Counted from the stretch's first letter, positions 1,377-42,894 are shown. The stretch is DNA of 64,000 bases from a virus (IMGVR_UViG_2711768056_000005); one strand, 5' to 3'. Notes: a model not told the origin generated them from the sequence alone. Translations and numbers: made by a program.

Positions 1377-1816
1377 TTGGCTGGGGTGTATGCGTTCTTG
1401 CGTTAGCCTTAGCCGATCGCTATTTGCTAAAACGCAAAGACATCACGCATTTAGAACTTGGTGATGTGGAAATTAAACAGGGCTTCATCCGGGTGCCGTT
1501 CAAATACCGGTCTAAATTCCCGTTTTTGCGCGGCGCAACGGTCAGATATTGGATCCGCGATGTTCAGAAGCCAACGACAGTGATTGAAGGCGAACAACGT
1601 TGTCTGACGTCGGCTGAACAGGGCGAAAACAGTGAATGGTTGTACATACCCACTGAATATATGGGTAAAGGAGAGCGACTGTGGCATTTCAACGTCATGG
1701 TTACGCATGGCGACTCGTTCATTAACCCGTTGTATCGGATTTTCCCTGTTACTCAGCAAATCCGCAGAAGTTACGTAATAAATCTCGCACAGGATGTGTC
1801 AGATGACGAAAAATAA
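1373..1816 (+). CDS. lydB: LydB-like (antiholin candidate)
   Basis: 147 aa, start overlaps preceding stop (ATGA); position and size match P1 lydB. Confidence 0.45.
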   Translation: MIGWGVCVLALALADRYLLKRKDITHLELGDVEIKQGFIRVPFKYRSKFPFLRGATVRYWIRDVQKPTTVIEGEQRCLTSAEQGENSEWLYIPTEYMGKGERLWHFNVMVTHGDSFINPLYRIFPVTQQIRRSYVINLAQDVSDDEK

Positions 1817-2405
1817 GTATGCAACGGTCGATTTTGACCAGGTTAATGAAAAGGGGCTGAAATCCCTTATCGCGGCGATCAATAAAACCGGTGTTACGGT
1901 AATTGAGGTTGACTCCAGCAACCGAGCAACAACGAAAGATGGCGTTAAAGTTAAAACCGCAAAGCTGGTTCTTAACGACGGACAAATTCTTGCCATACAG
2001 GTAAACGATACTGGCGATATATCGTCTGTGAAGCTGAATGGAAAAGCTATTCCTAACGCTCAGTCGCCGGATATCAAGACGCTTGGTACCGTCATGGGAC
2101 AGGCGGCCCGCAAAAACTCCGCAAAATTCCAGAAATCACTGATCGCCAAAGCGAAGCGTGTTGCCAATCCGGTAGACAAGAAACCGGCAGTTAAATCCAA
2201 CTTTCAGCGCCTGCAAGAAGCAAAACAGCGGAATGCTCAGGTGGTTGCCGCTTATAAGTCCGCGCAGAATTCGGTGTTTTTCAATCAACAGCAGATCACT
2301 GATTTGCGGGCGAAGCTGGATAAGGAGACGGGCCGACTCAATAACGAAAAGGCACGGAATGGCGAACTCAAACGTCGTCTTAAGCAACTGAAAGCAGGAA
2401 ATTAA
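1794..2405 (+). CDS. hdf: Hdf-like protein (shares NSAKFQ...LIAKAKR motif with DarA)
   Basis: 203 aa; internal motif AARKNSAKFQKSLIAKAKRV echoes DarA LAEKNSAKFQRAQKKKKAL; alternative start at 1803. Confidence 0.55.
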   Translation: MCQMTKNKYATVDFDQVNEKGLKSLIAAINKTGVTVIEVDSSNRATTKDGVKVKTAKLVLNDGQILAIQVNDTGDISSVKLNGKAIPNAQSPDIKTLGTVMGQAARKNSAKFQKSLIAKAKRVANPVDKKPAVKSNFQRLQEAKQRNAQVVAAYKSAQNSVFFNQQQITDLRAKLDKETGRLNNEKARNGELKRRLKQLKAGN

Positions 2406-2406
2406 C

Positions 2407-4326
2407 ATGGAACAGTTCAATATCAATAAAGGGGTGACGATCAAGCCTGGGCTTGACGTGCTTCCCCCGCCAGTGACTGATGATGAATATCGCGCATTAA
2501 TGGCCGGTGAGGACCGCTATCTGATGACGGAATCCAACACCCTGGAGGAAATCGAGGCTACGTTCTTCTATGACACGCCGATCCACTGGTGTGCTACGGA
2601 TTTACTGGAGGCGATTAGTTCTACTCGTTTGCAGTTACACCGGACCATGCAGGCATTTGTCCGGGCATTGAACCAGAAGCTGAATGGTACCGGAATCTCT
2701 GCGGGGAGTGATAAAACGGGGGATGTGGCCCAGAGCGGCGCGCGCGCGATCGGCGGCGCTGAAATTGGTCGGGCACGTAACGTTAACGGACTGCCGGTCC
2801 TGCCAGCCATTATTCCGCTCAGTGATGGTCAGACTATCAGCATTCTGTTTCATAGCCCGACAGCGGAAAACCGGATCACCAATAGCGATACGCTGGTTGC
2901 TTTCCAGTTCTTACTGAATAAAAAAGACGTTACTCACACCGTTGCTCCGATGAGTGGACGTGATATGACGCTGGCGCAGGTCACCATGAAACTTGCAAAC
3001 CTTGCAGAGAAAAACTCGGCAAAATTCCAGCGTGCGCAGAAGAAGAAAAAAGCCCTGGTTGATGAAATAACCCAACTACAGGCTGACAGTGACCAGAAAG
3101 AGGATGCCATGAGCGACCTCGCGGATCAGGTGGCAGCGGTAGAAGGCCAGAAGGCAGATCTGGAGCAGAAAATTAACGCGGTTGCTTCGGAAGCGGATTC
3201 TCTTTATCAAGAAAATGAGCGTTTGCAGGCGGAGATTGATCAGTTCAATCGCACTGGTAGGCGCGATACCATTGCTCCTGCGGGGATGACTGGTGGGCAC
3301 TCTCGCGCGCTGACGGATCGCCTTGCCAGTATCAAAAATCGTATGCATATGGACGGGGAAGCGACGCTCAGTAATGGTGCATCAATGAAGCAATTCATTG
3401 GGGACGGCGAAGGGTATATCCAGTTAACCGATCCGGATGGCAGCGTGTACATGATCAAGGCTAAATCCATACAGGGTGTGGACATGGCAGATGCGATCGG
3501 CAAGCTGTTTAAAGCCTATAAAGCGGGTAATGTATCGGAATATCTGGTCCAGCCAGAAGAACATAAACCGGAAAACGTCGAACCTGAACCAGCGGAGGAT
3601 ACCGGTAGCTCTTCGCCTGAACCAGAAGTCTCTGTAGGTGCATATCGATATGCCCTGCAAATGCGTCCGGCGGCCCCTGGCGCAATACCTGAAGGTAACA
3701 AAGCAATTCTGCCGCGCCCTGATGAAGGTGACCCGTATTATGAATATGCTCGCTACGGCATTGCTACTTACGATACCCCGCTTTCTGATCAGCAAATGAG
3801 TGAGTACGATCTGAAGTTATTGCCTCGCGAGGATTCTTTCGACTTCCTGGCGAAGACACTTACTAATGGTCCGTTTGGCAAATATGCACAAAAAGCTCTG
3901 GAGCTGGCCACCAGCTCACCAGACGAGTTTCGCGTAATGCTGAAAACTCAGTTTCAAAAAACTTTCCCCAATATTGCGTTTCCTGGGGGCGCTGGCACCG
4001 AGAAAATGGTGCAGAGCATGATCAATGCATTGCAGGCCGAAGTCGGTGATATTACTCAGCCAGAACCGGCCCCGGCACAGCCTGATGAAACGGTTAGCGA
4101 AGCAGATGCAGAGGCTAATAAAGCCATTGAATATCTCAATAACGTGATGGATATGCAAAGCACTGACATGGCGGAGATCCGTAACGCCCGGGGCAATGCC
4201 CGGGAAGCGATTGCAGCCCTTCAGGCTGCCGGACGTTTTGAGGAAAACGAAGAGCTGGTTAACGGCGCAGCTCGCCACCTGGCTGATCTGCTGGTAGCAA
4301 TCCAGAAAGCGGGGGTAGCGGCATGA
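2407..4326 (+). CDS. darA: DarA antirestriction / head-internal protein
   Basis: 639 aa, coiled-coil central region, immediately downstream of hdf; P1 darA operon synteny. Confidence 0.7.
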   Translation: MEQFNINKGVTIKPGLDVLPPPVTDDEYRALMAGEDRYLMTESNTLEEIEATFFYDTPIHWCATDLLEAISSTRLQLHRTMQAFVRALNQKLNGTGISAGSDKTGDVAQSGARAIGGAEIGRARNVNGLPVLPAIIPLSDGQTISILFHSPTAENRITNSDTLVAFQFLLNKKDVTHTVAPMSGRDMTLAQVTMKLANLAEKNSAKFQRAQKKKKALVDEITQLQADSDQKEDAMSDLADQVAAVEGQKADLEQKINAVASEADSLYQENERLQAEIDQFNRTGRRDTIAPAGMTGGHSRALTDRLASIKNRMHMDGEATLSNGASMKQFIGDGEGYIQLTDPDGSVYMIKAKSIQGVDMADAIGKLFKAYKAGNVSEYLVQPEEHKPENVEPEPAEDTGSSSPEPEVSVGAYRYALQMRPAAPGAIPEGNKAILPRPDEGDPYYEYARYGIATYDTPLSDQQMSEYDLKLLPREDSFDFLAKTLTNGPFGKYAQKALELATSSPDEFRVMLKTQFQKTFPNIAFPGGAGTEKMVQSMINALQAEVGDITQPEPAPAQPDETVSEADAEANKAIEYLNNVMDMQSTDMAEIRNARGNAREAIAALQAAGRFEENEELVNGAARHLADLLVAIQKAGVAA

Positions 4327-35430: not shown

Positions 35431-35670
35431 CTATTCTGTTTTCTGATATGCTGGATCGTTCCCTTTTGGCAACTGGAGGCTTAACTGCCGGTAGTGCCGT
35501 AACCGTTCCATGAAATAGGTGCGCAGGTTCTCTGGTTGCTCGCGGGCTACCTGTTCAGCTATGACAGGTATGTTCAATCGCTCTTTGTACGCCACACCGC
35601 TGGCAGCCAGATCAACGTTAACCTTATCCTGTTCTTCCTGACTTTTAGCTGCAATATTCCAGTCGCTCAT
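35431..35670 (-). CDS. hot: Hot, homolog of DNA polymerase III theta subunit
   Basis: 79 aa; [37 protein letters not shown] closely resembles E. coli HolE. Confidence 0.85.
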
Positions 35671-37764: not shown

Positions 37765-38025
37765 TTACCTCACCTCCAGTCTCCATACCGCCTGACCAAT
37801 CCGGCTGGCATGTGTATCTTTGGATACTGTTCCATCTTTAGCCAGCTCCATAAGAATTTTGCGCAAATCTGCCGAACGCCATTCTTCATCAGGAAATTCC
37901 TTCTCCATTGCCAACCGCAGATTCCAGGTTGCTATCGTGAATGGATATTCCCCGCCGAGAGCTTTCTCTTGCAGGGCAGCACGGGAACGTATCACCTGCA
38001 AAACCTTCTCTTTTACATCCATCAT
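37765..38025 (-). CDS. Hypothetical protein
   Basis: ORF 37765-38097; likely start MMDVKEKVL coupled to upstream stop. Confidence 0.4.
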   Translation of the reverse strand: MMDVKEKVLQVIRSRAALQEKALGGEYPFTIATWNLRLAMEKEFPDEEWRSADLRKILMELAKDGTVSKDTHASRIGQAVWRLEVR

Positions 38026-38720
38026 TTTGCCTCCTGCGGCGGTTCTGGTAGCGGCATCCAGTGTGATGGTATCCACGACGCACCAGGTATTACCCACCCA
38101 TCATTAGCGTCAGGATGCCCCGGGATGTAAGTCGCCCATTTCATTCGCCAGTCACCTTTCCTGTCAAACTCCCTGGCAACAAGAACGGCTGTTTTGGTAT
38201 CCGGCATTCGCTCACTACAGCTTATCCAACTATCCGGAATTACCGGATAGTTGCCCGACAGCTTGTTCAACTTGTAAGTCTGGCTTACAGGTTTGGCACC
38301 ATGAAGCATGGCGTCGCTCCGCTCTATGCCATCCAGCGCGATTCGCAGTGCCTGAATTGTGGTAGAGCTATCGTTTGGGGCTATTCCATATCGCTCGAAT
38401 ACAGCTAAATGGTTGCGCATAATCTCAGGCGTAAGCTCTTTGTAAGCATAAGCAAGAGGCTCTGATGCATTATCCGGCACAACCGACGCAAGCGCGGCAG
38501 CATAAACAGGAATAACGTCCACTTGCTCTTTATTGCTTTCATCCGTTAAAGCCCAGAATAATTTCCCGGCCGGATGTTTGAAAATATAAGCAATTGGTTC
38601 TGCTTCCAGCGATGCCAGTGCAATTTCATACGACCGTCGCTCAATATTGTCTCGCACGTCCAGGCTGCTGATACGCTCTTTGATTTCTTTAATCAGTTCT
38701 TTGTCGGTTAAAGTGGTCAT
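38022..38720 (-). CDS. Phage protein with DUF551-like C-terminal domain
   Basis: 232 aa; C-terminal ...WIPSHWMPLPEPP typical of DUF551. Confidence 0.5.
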   Translation of the reverse strand: MTTLTDKELIKEIKERISSLDVRDNIERRSYEIALASLEAEPIAYIFKHPAGKLFWALTDESNKEQVDVIPVYAAALASVVPDNASEPLAYAYKELTPEIMRNHLAVFERYGIAPNDSSTTIQALRIALDGIERSDAMLHGAKPVSQTYKLNKLSGNYPVIPDSWISCSERMPDTKTAVLVAREFDRKGDWRMKWATYIPGHPDANDGWVIPGASWIPSHWMPLPEPPQEAK

Positions 38721-38730
38721 AAATTATGCC

Positions 38731-39057
38731 TCAGTTGTATCCGATTGGATTAACCGCAACAAGAACGCCATCCGCGAACAAATCTTTAATGAGGTGTTCG
38801 CTCGGCTCGCCTTTTTCGTACTCTTCAATAAGGTAAGTGTCTCCATCTTCATTGATATAAACAGGAAGGATGGAGCCGTTGATAAAGTAGGTTCCGTTGT
38901 TATCGAGGATTTTTGCCTCGGCGATTTGTTTTTTGGTAAAACGCTCTTCTTTTGTCAAAGTTGCCATATCAGCTTTCCTTATATGGGTTGATTTTGTTGT
39001 GCAATGTGTTGAACGACGCCCATACCACGTCGTTATACAATTCAATAACTGGCTCAA
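38731..39057 (-). CDS. Hypothetical protein
   Basis: ORF 108 aa; probable start MATLTKEERF. Confidence 0.4.
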   Translation of the reverse strand: MSQLLNCITTWYGRRSTHCTTKSTHIRKADMATLTKEERFTKKQIAEAKILDNNGTYFINGSILPVYINEDGDTYLIEEYEKGEPSEHLIKDLFADGVLVAVNPIGYN

Positions 39058-39188
39058 TTATTTTCCCGATTCCCCATACCAGAATTAACGGGGATATCGG
39101 TATCATCAACACGATAAACAGAATGAGAAACAGAAATTCTGTTATTCGGCTTCTTCGCGGATATTCTTTTCTGAATAATGTTGGCACA

Positions 39189-39410
39189 TCACTCTCCTTT
39201 GCCCGCAGCTTTCGCCTGCTCTTTAGCAAGTCGCTCCGCTTCTCTGAAGTCCCAATCCACTCGATGTGCGATATCAATTGCAGAACGCACGGTTCGTTCA
39301 ATTAGCGTATCCAGGTTATCAATTGTCATTGCCATATCTGGATTTCGAGATAAAATCTCCGCCCTCTGAATCTGCCAGTTGTTACAGGTTTCAAGTAATG
39401 AGTTAGCCAT
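39189..39410 (-). CDS. Hypothetical protein
   Basis: ORF 39189-39482; probable start MANSLLETCNNWQ. Confidence 0.4.
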   Translation of the reverse strand: MANSLLETCNNWQIQRAEILSRNPDMAMTIDNLDTLIERTVRSAIDIAHRVDWDFREAERLAKEQAKAAGKGE

Positions 39411-39411
39411 A

Positions 39412-39600
39412 TCACTCTCCTTTAGTGCGCAAGTGGTTTTTCCAGCGGTTTTGCGCCGCGCTGGGCTTTTTGCAAAAACCACAATCCATCATCCCGTAAT
39501 ATTTCATCAACCCCATCCGTCGGTTGCTGAGTCTCACCCACTGCCAGACGCCAGGAGCGTTTCTACGAACTAACAGAATCTTTGCTTTACGGTTTTTCAT
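39412..39600 (-). CDS. Small basic protein
   Basis: 62 aa. Confidence 0.3.
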   Translation of the reverse strand: MKNRKAKILLVRRNAPGVWQWVRLSNRRMGLMKYYGMMDCGFCKKPSAAQNRWKNHLRTKGE

Positions 39601-39773
39601 CGTTTTGCTCTCCTGCGTCTCTTTGCTGCTCGTCGTGCCGATGCAATACCGGTATGGCGGCGCTTTGGTGCCGGGATGATGTTGTCAGCCATCAGGACAT
39701 GTGGCTTTGCAATTAGCGCAGAAGCCCAAAAACGAGTCGGGTACGGTAACAAGCCGAAAAATGCCACACGCAT
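39597..39773 (-). CDS. Small Arg-rich protein
   Basis: 58 aa, overlapping stop/start with both neighbours. Confidence 0.3.
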   Translation of the reverse strand: MRVAFFGLLPYPTRFWASALIAKPHVLMADNIIPAPKRRHTGIASARRAAKRRRRAKR

Positions 39774-40696
39774 TACTCACCTCCTTTGATGCGAATGCCA
39801 GCAAGCCAGTTTCTTATGCCGATATATTCAGCGTTCCTGAAACCGCTTTTTACATATATAAATGGCAAGCGAAGATTGTGACCATTGACTGCCAGGTAGT
39901 CTTTACAACCCTGTTCGGTGAAACAGCAGGTAACGAATTCATCAATATCTTTCACAGCAACGCGCCGCCATTTTTCTGGTGGCTCTCGAAAGTTTTCGTG
40001 AAGTAGTTCGAGACGACGACTTTGGCGTTTATTGGCTTCATTGCCATCTTCATCAACCCAGACAATCCGGTCATAGTCATAATCAGCATCAACAACGATT
40101 TCGCGCTTTTGATACACACAAAACATAGGGTCTGACGTTATTCGATTATCCTGTGTTCGAATATTTTCACCGATGATGCCAAACGAATCTGGTGCAGATT
40201 TTGTCTGCAACTCTTCGATGCGTTCAGCCATCGCAGCACACTCTTCAAAGTTGCTTAATGCTTTTCGCTCCCATTCAGCGCATTGTTTTTCCAGTTCTGC
40301 TATGCACTTACTTCCATCCGAGATAACACCTTCGTAATACTCACGCTGCTCGTTGAGTTTTGATTTTGCTTCCTCAAGCTCAACTCTCAGCTTCCCTACC
40401 GTTAGCGCAATATCCTCGTTCTCCTGGTCACGGCGTTTGATGTATTGCTGGTTTCTTTCCCGTTCATCCAGTAGTGCCAGCACGGTTTCTGGTCCGGCCA
40501 GAAATTTGAAGGCGTTGAGCGCATCAATATCCACACCGTAATCTTTAAGTTCCTGTTCACTTAACAAATCATCATCAGCTGGCAACATTAACAGGCGTTC
40601 CATTGCTGGAATTGCACGTTTCGCCACCTCACGCAATGCCTGGTAATTAATTTCGCTCACTGGTTGCCTCCTTTGCGGAGTTGCGCTGCGATGCAC
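39773..40696 (-). CDS. Ea22-like coiled-coil protein
   Basis: 307 aa, central coiled coil, resembles lambdoid Ea22/Ead family. Confidence 0.45.
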   Translation of the reverse strand: MHRSATPQRRQPVSEINYQALREVAKRAIPAMERLLMLPADDDLLSEQELKDYGVDIDALNAFKFLAGPETVLALLDERERNQQYIKRRDQENEDIALTVGKLRVELEEAKSKLNEQREYYEGVISDGSKCIAELEKQCAEWERKALSNFEECAAMAERIEELQTKSAPDSFGIIGENIRTQDNRITSDPMFCVYQKREIVVDADYDYDRIVWVDEDGNEANKRQSRRLELLHENFREPPEKWRRVAVKDIDEFVTCCFTEQGCKDYLAVNGHNLRLPFIYVKSGFRNAEYIGIRNWLAGIRIKGGE

Positions 40697-40896
40697 GAAA
40701 AAAAAGACTCCCGAGTATGACAGTTAAGAGCTGGTACGAACGCCGCGTTAAGAACGGCGGCATCACAGCCGTCATCAATATAGAGCGCAATTTTTTTCTC
40801 CAGGCGCGCTTTGGCTTCTTGCAACTGCATACCCCGGCACGCACGCGGGATATAATCAGCAATTTGAGCGATAGCTTTTTCGTTCTGTTTAAACAT
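40657..40896 (-). CDS. Hypothetical protein
   Basis: 79 aa. Confidence 0.35.
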   Translation of the reverse strand: MFKQNEKAIAQIADYIPRACRGMQLQEAKARLEKKIALYIDDGCDAAVLNAAFVPALNCHTRESFFSCIAAQLRKGGNQ

Positions 40897-41092
40897 GCTT
40901 CACCTCGATAGGCTTGATGGTGTCTAACAGCAGTCGGCGGCGCGTATTTTCTGCAAAATGGCGGCGTCCAGTTTCTTTGTGGTAAAACTCGTTTTTGCCA
41001 ACGACCCACATCCGCTCTGTTTGGTGCAGTTTTTTTACCTTCGGGCCATCTTTGGTGATCACGGTACCGGTATGGGTTTTTACGATTGTCAT
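40889..41092 (-). CDS. Hypothetical protein
   Basis: 67 aa. Confidence 0.4.
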   Translation of the reverse strand: MTIVKTHTGTVITKDGPKVKKLHQTERMWVVGKNEFYHKETGRRHFAENTRRRLLLDTIKPIEVKHV

Positions 41093-41967
41093 TCCACTAC
41101 CTCTTCGAATTTCAACTCCAATTGGTCACCCCAGATTTCACATGATTCGGAACACGAACCAGTATCAAACCGCTTGGCCAGCACCATCGCCTGATACAAA
41201 TTTCTGTAGTCACTGTTGGCATACATTCTGGCAATCCCGTCAAGCGTCAGGTGGCCACGGTACATAACGTCTTTACCTGTTCTGCGATGACCATCCCTGA
41301 CGTGTTTGCCTGTAACCAGTTCATTAAAAACCCGCATCAGACCAGGTTCGTCTTTACATGCAAGCCCCAGCTTTTGCGTTGACTTTTTGATGCAAAAAAC
41401 ACAGTTCCCGAGGTGCTCCGGGATTTGCAAATCAAAAGGTTGTTTTCGCCACCACCGGATAACATCCGACTTATCAAAATCTGACAGCTCGGCAAGATAC
41501 CGGACGCCCGGTTTCGGTTTCAGCCTACGGGGTTCGTCCGCACGAATACCTAGCCATGTGATGTAATTCCCTCGCCCAAAATGGTCATCGCAATATTTCG
41601 TGAAAGGGGTGAGTTTTAGCCTGTCAGTACAGAACGCGCCGCCGATGTATGGCGTACCGTACTTTTTAACCATGTCCATAAACGGTTTAAGCACCGGCAT
41701 TCGCGTCTGAATATCCTTTGGTTCCCATTCCGTATAACCATTTGGCTGCCCAAGTTCTGGATTTATATCGACCTGCAACACCGTTAGCGGTACGTTCCAG
41801 AACTTCACAACCTCACGAATAAAGCGATACGTCAGAGGATGTTCACAGCCGGTATCCATAAAAATGAAATGGACGCTAGCGCCAGCTTTTCGCTGTGCTT
41901 CCATCAGATGAACGAGATAAGCTGATGTTCGTCCACCTGAAAAGCTGACGACTTGATGCATACTCAC
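41089..41967 (-). CDS. PAPS reductase-like PP-loop ATP pyrophosphatase family protein
   Basis: 292 aa; N-terminal VSFSGGRTSAYL (SGGxDS PP-loop); C-terminal Cys cluster. Confidence 0.7.
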   Translation of the reverse strand: MSMHQVVSFSGGRTSAYLVHLMEAQRKAGASVHFIFMDTGCEHPLTYRFIREVVKFWNVPLTVLQVDINPELGQPNGYTEWEPKDIQTRMPVLKPFMDMVKKYGTPYIGGAFCTDRLKLTPFTKYCDDHFGRGNYITWLGIRADEPRRLKPKPGVRYLAELSDFDKSDVIRWWRKQPFDLQIPEHLGNCVFCIKKSTQKLGLACKDEPGLMRVFNELVTGKHVRDGHRRTGKDVMYRGHLTLDGIARMYANSDYRNLYQAMVLAKRFDTGSCSESCEIWGDQLELKFEEVVE

Positions 41968-41970
41968 GGT

Positions 41971-42699
41971 TTATTCCTGAATGCGCTTAAACTCGATTAC
42001 CCACACCCAGGGATTAGCGTTCCAGCTTTCTTCACCATAGATGGATTCCCACAGGCGCTGGAACGCAACCTTGGCCATTGCGAAATCCCCCTTGGGAGTA
42101 AGGAATGTTCCCGGGTGATCAGGAAGCAAACTTCCAGCAGGCGGAACGCCCTCATCCCTTGCATCGCATTCGCTGATATCGTTCAACCGCTCAACGCGCA
42201 CGTTGGTAATTTCCAACAGGATGCGTGATGCCCATCGCGGCATGTGAATTGATGGACGCCACCCACCATCAAACTTTTCATTCACAGTGTGAGGTTTCCA
42301 GTCGGCATCATCGGGTATCGACCATAAACCGTAATCACCAGGCTTTTGCTCACAACTGGCCCGATAAATCCTTGCTGCGTTCTTCTCATCGCCACGACAA
42401 AGGTTGTCGTTCCAGTCCACACTGCAACCATCTTCATTGCCTAATATCGCCCATGTTTCACGAACCCAAATTCGATCGCCGACGATACCAAAGGGGCAAT
42501 TGAAAACACTGCTTACACCATCAGCCCCGTACCACTGAAAACCTGCACCAATTTCCCTAACCATCACTGGTGCTTCTGGACCAACTTCCGCAGGCTGATT
42601 TTTCATTATCCGCCGCGTCTGCGTTTTCCTTCCTTCGAGGATGGCTCGGACCATCTCATCGTTGAAAATCATGCCGCGCTCTTTCACTTCGCCTTTCAT
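41971..42699 (-). CDS. ASCH/PUA-like domain protein
   Basis: 242 aa; N-terminal MIFNDEMVRAILEGRKTQTRR typical of ASCH-like proteins. Confidence 0.5.
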   Translation of the reverse strand: MKGEVKERGMIFNDEMVRAILEGRKTQTRRIMKNQPAEVGPEAPVMVREIGAGFQWYGADGVSSVFNCPFGIVGDRIWVRETWAILGNEDGCSVDWNDNLCRGDEKNAARIYRASCEQKPGDYGLWSIPDDADWKPHTVNEKFDGGWRPSIHMPRWASRILLEITNVRVERLNDISECDARDEGVPPAGSLLPDHPGTFLTPKGDFAMAKVAFQRLWESIYGEESWNANPWVWVIEFKRIQE

Positions 42700-42708
42700 G
42701 CATCCCCC

Positions 42709-42795
42709 TTACCCATGCGCGACGATGCCGCCAAAAGTGATAGAGAACAGCCAGAAATAGATCGCGGCCATAATGATTTTGAATGCCGTGTTCAT
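42709..42795 (-). CDS. 28-aa hydrophobic leader peptide (MNTAFKIIMAAIYFWLFSITFGGIVAHG)
   Basis: AGGAG RBS 6 nt upstream; first ORF after C1 operator. Confidence 0.35.
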   Translation of the reverse strand: MNTAFKIIMAAIYFWLFSITFGGIVAHG

Positions 42796-42877
42796 ATTTT
42801 CAGCTCCTGTGATTGATTGGATACATGCCGCGCCTTGCGGCATGTTTTTATTTTCACTTTCTCTGTTTTAAAAATCA

Positions 42878-42894
42878 ATATTTATTAGAGCAAT
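42878..42894 (-). promoter_or_regulatory. C1 operator (16/17)
   Basis: Reverse complement ATTGCTCTAATAAATAT. Confidence 0.6.

Follow-up and report, generated by a model that had tools for sequence, protein, structure and literature searches.

A P1-type Op88/pmgT early accessory unit with lambdoid ninC cargo and a predicted YqfB-type ASCH fold for PmgT

Genes and features of the locus

The 64,000-nucleotide stretch of viral DNA IMGVR_UViG_2711768056_000005 (the window) carries, on its minus strand between positions 41089 and 42894, a compact unit made up of an operator for the C1 repressor, a hairpin, a small open reading frame (ORF), a 242-amino-acid (242-aa) ORF, and a 292-aa ORF. By sequence comparison, the locus is the known Op88/pmgT early accessory unit of phage P1 with lambdoid cargo, the 242-aa product being PmgT and the 292-aa product an ortholog of lambda NinC. 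A first-pass annotation, made from the DNA sequence alone, had placed the features of the unit at the correct coordinates and had read them as a C1-repressed operon for a leader peptide and two proteins that might together modify DNA or tRNA. The features of the unit are as follows:

42878-42894, minus strand: C1 operator, equivalent to P1 Op88/OpmgT, assigned by consensus match and by position in the P1 record
42850-42898, minus strand: predicted sigma-70 promoter elements overlapping the operator, transferred from the P1 record
42823-42845, no strand assigned: 9-bp GC-rich hairpin in the 5' untranslated region, from RNA folding
42709-42795, minus strand: 28-codon hydrophobic small ORF, with its ATG at 42795 and its stop codon at 42709-42711
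41971-42699, minus strand: pmgT, with a predicted ASCH fold, a YqfB-type GxKxxTxR motif, and a variable middle
41089-41967, minus strand: ninC ortholog, with a PP-loop, a PAPS-reductase fold, and conserved cysteines

C1 operator and promoters

The operator, ATTGCTCTAATAAATAT, fits the asymmetric 17-bp C1 consensus, ATTGCTCTAATAAATTT, at 16 of 17 positions and had 1 variable site across 16 haplotypes. The P1 record (NC_005856) annotates the same site, at the same position and with the same flanks, as a protein_bind feature named "monovalent C1-controlled operator OpmgT; former Op88." The operator proposed in the first-pass annotation was thus recovered both by consensus and in P1, and the P1 annotation of OpmgT supports, by analogy, the view that the unit is C1 controlled. 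In total, 17 C1-type operators were observed in the window, against 0.26 expected by chance, indicating that the window is a P1-type element. Window positions 42005 to 43500 aligned with P1 positions 83687 to 85182 at 97.4% identity (megablast), and this segment included the protein_bind and promoter features.

Op88 adjoins the stop codon of pap and overlaps two promoters in the P1 record, P2pmgT (-35 TTGCTC, -10 TAAAAC) and P1pmgT (-35 TTGATT), both of which are sigma-70 predictions. A promoter scan of the window DNA returned a single weak site, at 42922-42893, whose -10 element (AATAAT) abuts the operator. A second operator with the identical 17-mer lies elsewhere in the window, at 62594-62610 on the minus strand.

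PmgT

pmgT starts 9 nt after the small ORF, and its product belongs to phrog_874. The ASCH fold, a PUA-like beta-barrel, was found only by the structural route and not by sequence search: phmmer against the PDB gave a best E value of 0.84 (human ASC-1), and a profile search of the PDB gave nothing. The AlphaFold model, built from 49 homologs, had a moderate predicted local distance difference test (pLDDT) score of 64.8, and residues 7 to 81 and 160 to 240 were well modelled. The first-pass guess of an ASCH/PUA-like protein is upheld by this predicted structure and by the presence of a YqfB-type octapeptide, GxKxx[T/S/E]xR. In PmgT this reads G23-R-K25-T-Q-T28-R-R30 (GRKTQTRR), aligning with G19-R-K21-T-I-T24-I-R26 (GRKTITIR) of YqfB. 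When the PmgT profile was compared with YqfB by hhalign, the N-terminal motif alone was aligned, with a probability of 9.5%. In a global pairwise alignment, which misplaced the N-terminus and was used for the C-terminal half only, PmgT E183 fell on YqfB E74, the acidic triad residue, and WVIEFK on YVIEFK.

Among 47 PmgT relatives (39 to 66% identity), K25, R30, and E183 were invariant and G23 and T28 were at least 90% conserved; the position of YqfB Tyr89 was not conserved across the family. In YqfB itself, the substitutions K21A, T24A, and R26A abolish activity, and E74A cuts turnover 100- to 1000-fold (PMC6972931). A 2026 preprint reports that 19 of 19 ASCH proteins tested removed N4-acetylcytidine (ac4C) from tRNA and sets apart a subgroup with a GK[T/S]R octapeptide, of which YqfB is the type (bioRxiv 10.64898/2026.02.27.708502). 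E. coli YqfB, one of the ASCH-domain N4-acetylcytidine amidohydrolases/tRNA ac4C erasers, has 103 aa, whereas PmgT has 242 aa, with a variable loop and an unmodelled insertion of approximately 75 residues. We infer, rather than demonstrate, that PmgT is a YqfB-type amidohydrolase with an additional allele-specific insertion, as predicted from sequence and model.

This family is a very large one, common among temperate enterobacterial phages: 45,230 clusters at 50% identity reach an E value of ≤0.001, and none of them is captured by Pfam ASCH. A short, 148-aa relative likewise stayed below the gathering cutoff of that model (E value of 0.0047; 18 bits against 21.2). Relatives usually match PmgT in two stretches, N-terminal and C-terminal, around the variable middle. 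In the literature searched on NinC, PAPS reductase, and ASCH, neither phage protein had been studied functionally; for PmgT, the ASCH/tRNA ac4C finding offers a direct and inexpensive assay.

Several further observations concern the alleles of pmgT. Hypervariable segments at residues ~32 to 70 and ~185 to 210 (window ~42490-42606 and ~42070-42147) are flanked by invariant blocks, and P1-like plasmids that are nearly identical in other respects carry either long (~240 aa) or short (~190 aa) alleles. Four residues conserved among the long alleles, C92, C116, H137, and H152, are candidate metal ligands. The reference P1 PmgT (309 aa; L001, 3766-4695) departs from the family after "...SANPWV" (window 41971-42005), so that it is without the last strand, WVIEFK, and has instead an unrelated extension of ~77 aa that overlaps pmgU. 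By sequence, the P1 reference allele looks like a 3' recombinant and may be impaired, and the 242-aa allele of the window would be the intact form.

NinC

The 292-aa protein, whose gene starts 3 nt past the pmgT stop codon, is 80% identical to lambda NinC over residues 3 to 287 (the lambda locus lies beside ninB) and 95% identical, across its whole length, to the NinC of Shiga toxin (Stx) phages. It matches phrog_424 over its full length (2e-92) and Pfam PAPS_reduct (PF01507) with its first 72 residues. Its model (pLDDT, 87.6) is confident except for the last 20 residues and contains the PP-loop fold. These results agree with the PAPS-reductase/PP-loop assignment in the first-pass annotation. 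The motif given there as SGGxDS reads SFSGGRTS (SGGxxS) in NinC, and the reported C-terminal cysteine cluster holds in that C189xxC192 and C272xxxC276 are conserved, with the correction that C113 and C126 are invariant as well. Across relatives of 49 to 92% identity, the invariant elements were SFSGGR[TS]S, DTG.EH, C113, C126, and GNCxFCxKK (containing C189xxC192), and GSCSESCE (containing C272xxxC276), located in the disordered tail, was at least 90% conserved. The lambda and Stx-phage proteins share length, motifs, and family (phrog_424) with the window protein; the settings differ, lambda ninC following ninB in the nin region, Stx-phage ninC lying in the early-left region, and window ninC standing behind pmgT and a P1 C1 operator.

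Two better-known enzyme classes were considered for NinC and rejected. It scored 21.9 bits against a cutoff of 154 for the CysH equivalog NF002537 and 13 against 254 for TIGR02057, and its C-terminus carries GSCSESCE with no ECG[LI]H, unlike CysH/APS reductase, which has an ECGLH tail; a genuine CysH or APS reductase was rejected on both grounds. The DndC model TIGR03183 likewise gave 17.8 bits against 290. Because these scores are far below the curated cutoffs, NinC is not CysH, APS reductase, or DndC. Its best match in a defence library was SspD, through the N-terminal half only, and PADLOC returned no matches apart from partial similarity of NinC to SspD, BrxP, and DndC. The phosphorothioation sulfurtransferases DndC and SspD work with DndADE and SspABC partners, whereas none of DndA/D/E, SspA/B/C, or a cysteine desulfurase was found among the ORFs neighbouring window ninC, and a Dnd/Ssp defence system was rejected for this reason.

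Several NinC relatives are natural fusions to a phage Dam DNA methyltransferase domain. Three such proteins (P0208, P0217, and P0236; e.g., in Vibrio phage 44E38.1) have a full-length NinC-like domain fused to a Dam (PF05869) DNA adenine methyltransferase, and in Salmonella phage Oslo the NinC-like and Dam proteins are encoded by neighbouring genes. In addition, the two PHROG profiles matched by NinC are both longer than NinC, and each was matched in part. The Dam fusions and the partial matches to longer profiles are pointers to DNA as the substrate, and to judge from these sequence relationships NinC probably acts on DNA. Lambda ninC is dispensable (PMC10695390). For a protein unexplained since lambda was sequenced, the Dam fusions and the SspD/DndC-like features give DNA-directed hints.

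A separate observation concerns database contigs. Six GTDB contigs of ~20 to 48.5 kb (L170, L172, L175-L177, and L179) gave an identical score and 80% identity to window NinC; they are assigned to unrelated taxa (Pseudomonas, Oceanobacillus, Neobacillus, Shewanella, and Chromatiales), and several have very low coverage. The size of some (~48.4 kb), the low coverage, and the identity matching that of lambda NinC suggest contamination with lambda control DNA.

An alternative for the two proteins is that neither is an enzyme, PmgT being a non-catalytic reader of modified bases (a decoy or anti-restriction protein) and NinC a degenerate domain. In type IV restriction enzymes, ASCH, EVE, and YTH domains do sense modified bases (PMC12707154, PMC10853773), and hypervariable segments between invariant blocks, as in PmgT, are a common pattern in arms-race proteins. 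This alternative appears unlikely, because the invariant or near-invariant catalytic residues of the 47 PmgT relatives would not be needed by a pure binder and because the NinC relatives have kept the PP-loop and six cysteines.

The pmgT-ninC junction

The P1 unit, OpmgT-pmgT-pmgU-pmgV, has the same operator, upstream pap, untranslated region, and small ORF as the window, and its PmgT is 99% identical over the first 232 residues. Homology to P1 ends at window position 42005, within the last codons of pmgT; past codon 232 the P1 sequence is unrelated, and pmgU and pmgV, with no ninC, occupy the place where the window has ninC, two small ORFs, and an Ea22-type gene. Window positions 40629 to 41966, which hold ninC and the two small ORFs, match the Stx-phage early-left region at 92% identity; the gene before ninC there is an HD-domain gene or an unrelated one of 147 aa, with DUF2303 in addition. 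Six P1-like loci (L002, L008-L011, and L019) retain only a 23-codon ninC start together with pmgT and the downstream small ORFs, and in the three examined by blastn (L002, L008, and L010) this was a clean deletion of window positions 41110 to 41898.

Adjacency of the two genes was rare. Intact ninC stood beside pmgT in 3 of 80 viral contigs encoding PmgT relatives, and pmgT preceded ninC in 12 of 80 contigs with close NinC relatives, all 12 in a subclade at least 98% identical to window NinC. Among diverse NinC loci from species-representative genomes, none of 79 had an adjacent PmgT relative, and 1 had a short relative within 4 kb. Plasmid records gave 587 with the full operator and small-ORF segment but only 35 with the pmgT-ninC junction. 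In Klebsiella lambdoid prophages, pmgT homologs are flanked by kil and int, and their vicinity holds no PAPS-reductase gene. Furthermore, in the 12 contigs where pmgT precedes ninC, four pmgT alleles (99, 82, 69, and 46% identity) precede ninC genes that are 98 to 100% identical, and such a succession of alleles before one near-identical ninC implies recombination within pmgT. Judged by these sequences, the pmgT/ninC junction is a recombination joint, and the two enzymes look mostly like independent cargo.

The first-pass annotation had instead paired the ASCH and PP-loop proteins functionally. In its fuller form, PmgT would bind or edit and NinC would adenylate in a shared early reaction on DNA or tRNA, for instance thiolation or deazapurine-type chemistry. 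The genes are separated by 3 nt and their translation may be coupled, all four pmgT alleles and two contexts outside P1 have the pair, both folds come from nucleic-acid-modifying superfamilies, and the Dam fusions of NinC relatives fit such a role. Cooperation is nevertheless improbable. Besides the rare adjacency, the mosaic joint, and the fact that close NinC relatives usually have the HD-domain or the 147-aa protein in front of them, P1, lambda, and Stx phages each have one gene without the other, and no deazapurine or sulfur-donor genes were found in the operon. Nor is the pairing conserved across P1-like phages, P1 having no ninC and siblings having lost it while retaining pmgT. Modification of nucleic acid stays plausible for each protein alone, and as a joint function it is unsupported.

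A third explanation, that pmgT and its neighbours serve virion assembly, follows the "putative morphogenetic function" label of PmgT, PmgU, and PmgV in the P1 record and the UniRef name "Morphogenetic protein," and it is highly improbable and already largely refuted, given the early C1 operator with no late promoter annotated before the unit in the P1 record, the enzymatic folds, the homologs in early-left regions of lambdoid prophages, and the finding by CRISPR interference (CRISPRi) that pmgT, pmgU, and pmgV are non-essential for plaques (PMC10695390). Since PmgT has an ASCH fold and retains the YqfB catalytic residues, its morphogenetic label is almost certainly wrong.

Proposed role of the unit

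The explanation that we favour, and hold to be reasonably probable, is that the locus is an Op88/OpmgT-controlled early unit of a P1-like plasmid prophage, with a recombination-prone cargo slot and enzymes that work independently. In a lysogen, C1 bound at the operator, which overlaps the predicted promoter elements, would keep the unit silent; upon derepression the unit would be transcribed, presumably with all genes on one transcript. The Op88 slot would then hold exchangeable cargo and not a fixed pathway, with the small hydrophobic ORF always kept beside the operator. The cargo varies among long and short pmgT, intact and deleted ninC, lambdoid early-left genes (Ea22 and DUF551), and convergent type I hsdR, the window version being pmgT followed by a lambda-type ninC cassette. 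PmgT would be an ASCH-fold, YqfB-type hydrolase that most likely takes the N4-acyl group off cytosine, be it in a nucleoside, in tRNA, or in another nucleic acid. NinC would be a separate enzyme of the ATP-pyrophosphatase/sulfur-transfer type, probably with an Fe-S cluster and probably working on DNA, and the two would act independently of each other.

Four results weigh against this explanation or parts of it. PmgT had no Pfam match at E values up to 0.1, including ASCH (PF04266), and no NCBIfam match. Its residues 82 to 158 are unmodelled although conserved within the long allele, and the overall pLDDT of its model is moderate. CRISPRi knock-down of P1 pmgT and lambda ninC caused no plating defect, a result that is uninformative on function (PMC10695390). 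Finally, the pmgT-ninC unit, with the same 3-nt spacing, occurs in two non-P1 contigs (L020 and L026), which may indicate some functional linkage within this Escherichia coli phage pool.

Taken as an operon, the unit is unremarkable: a regulatory unit known from P1 has had its cargo exchanged, and all of its proteins are already in public databases. Of use are the reassignment of PmgT, by prediction, to the YqfB-type ASCH proteins, whose catalytic residues it conserves, and the DNA-directed hints about NinC. A bolder idea, which we regard as doubtful, is that the PmgT family consists of early phage "erasers" of N4-acyl (or related) cytosine in host tRNA (e.g., ac4C34 of elongator tRNA-Met) or other nucleic acid, reprogramming decoding or disarming modification-dependent defence, and that NinC independently adds a sulfur mark to DNA. 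If this were true, the operon would be, in the minority of phages with both genes, a small nucleic-acid editing toolkit switched on right after C1 derepression.

The 5' untranslated region and the small ORF

The small ORF has the sequence MNTAFKIIMAAIYFWLFSITFGGIVAHG, with AGGAG 8 nt upstream of its ATG, as expected from the first-pass description of a tiny hydrophobic ORF with a good ribosome-binding site; an alternative start at 42843 gives a 44-aa form. Public records list it as "membrane protein" (usually the 44-aa form) or hypothetical. Its frame was open in all copies examined, with 2 variable sites in 87 nt compared with 9 in 82 nt of the adjoining untranslated region. The changes across all copies were 3 synonymous and 4 non-synonymous, too few substitutions for a coding test. 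In IncY P1-like plasmids that have a convergent type I hsdR in the place of pmgT, the ORF was likewise unbroken. It probably encodes a small membrane protein and is a constant companion of Op88.

The earlier name "leader peptide" does not suit it, as attenuator features are absent and the ORF is kept where pmgT has been replaced. RNA folding of positions 42690 to 42862 gave the 42823-42845 hairpin as the sole robust structure, with a fold z-score of -1.28. A terminator scan found no terminator facing the operon direction near the small ORF, and only the 9-nt gap separates the ORF from pmgT. Because the stretch from the small ORF to pmgT holds no structure, a leader or attenuator role was rejected; the lone hairpin is upstream of the ORF, in a region that is not unusually structured.

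The stem of this hairpin is kept in hsd-bearing P1-like plasmids, where the loop is 2 nt longer. On the plus strand, the hairpin and the T-run that follows it (42823-42855; TTTTATTTTC) score as an intrinsic terminator, which could halt antisense or convergent transcription, e.g., from hsdR in the hsd-bearing relatives, before it reaches pap.

Neighbouring genes and the cargo slot

The genes flanking the unit include the following:

42894-43400, minus strand: pap, a HAD-type polynucleotide 3'-phosphatase upstream of the operator (Pfam HAD_PNKP, 1.2e-11; 97% identical to P1 Pap)
40889-41092, minus strand: 67-aa ORF, phrog_1226, co-transferred with ninC, whose stop codon it overlaps by 4 nt
40657-40896, minus strand: 79-aa ORF, phrog_1344, part of the same cassette and syntenic in Stx phages
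39773-40696, minus strand: Ead/Ea22-like protein, a lambdoid early-left accessory gene (Pfam PF13935, 4.6e-36)

The 67-aa ORF follows ninC in both Stx phages and P1-like elements, and the Ead/Ea22-like protein is 79% identical over 326 aa to its counterpart in phage VT2phi_272. Positions 38022 to 40696 on the minus strand hold the Ead/Ea22-like gene and a DUF551 protein gene, typical of lambdoid early-left regions, and are followed by hot (DNA polymerase III theta; 35431-35670). It appears that P1 pmgU through upfO has been exchanged for an entire block of lambdoid accessory genes.

In three of four P1-like plasmids examined, convergent type I hsdR begins right after the stop codon of the small ORF. 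These three (L250, L251, and L252; IncHI1B- and IncY-typed) have hsdR at about 1700-3197 in place of pmgT and its neighbours, and the fourth (L249) has IS1 at that place. The position of hsdR directly past the small ORF implies that the Op88 slot behaves as a hot spot for cargo exchange, with a breakpoint after the small ORF. Some 280 non-P1 plasmids, IncF types among them, also have an 84-nt piece of the small ORF (42705-42788) at ~99% identity; in NZ_CP040398.1 (L169, 3001-3084), for example, it lies between IS1 and the 3' end of type I hsdR. It looks like a P1-derived remnant carried along with the hsd cassette.

Upstream of the unit, the interval from pmgS to pap contains a strong hairpin resembling an intrinsic terminator (43425-43453, minus strand; 11 bp and then TTTTT), and pap may accordingly be transcribed apart from the pmgR-pmgS operon.

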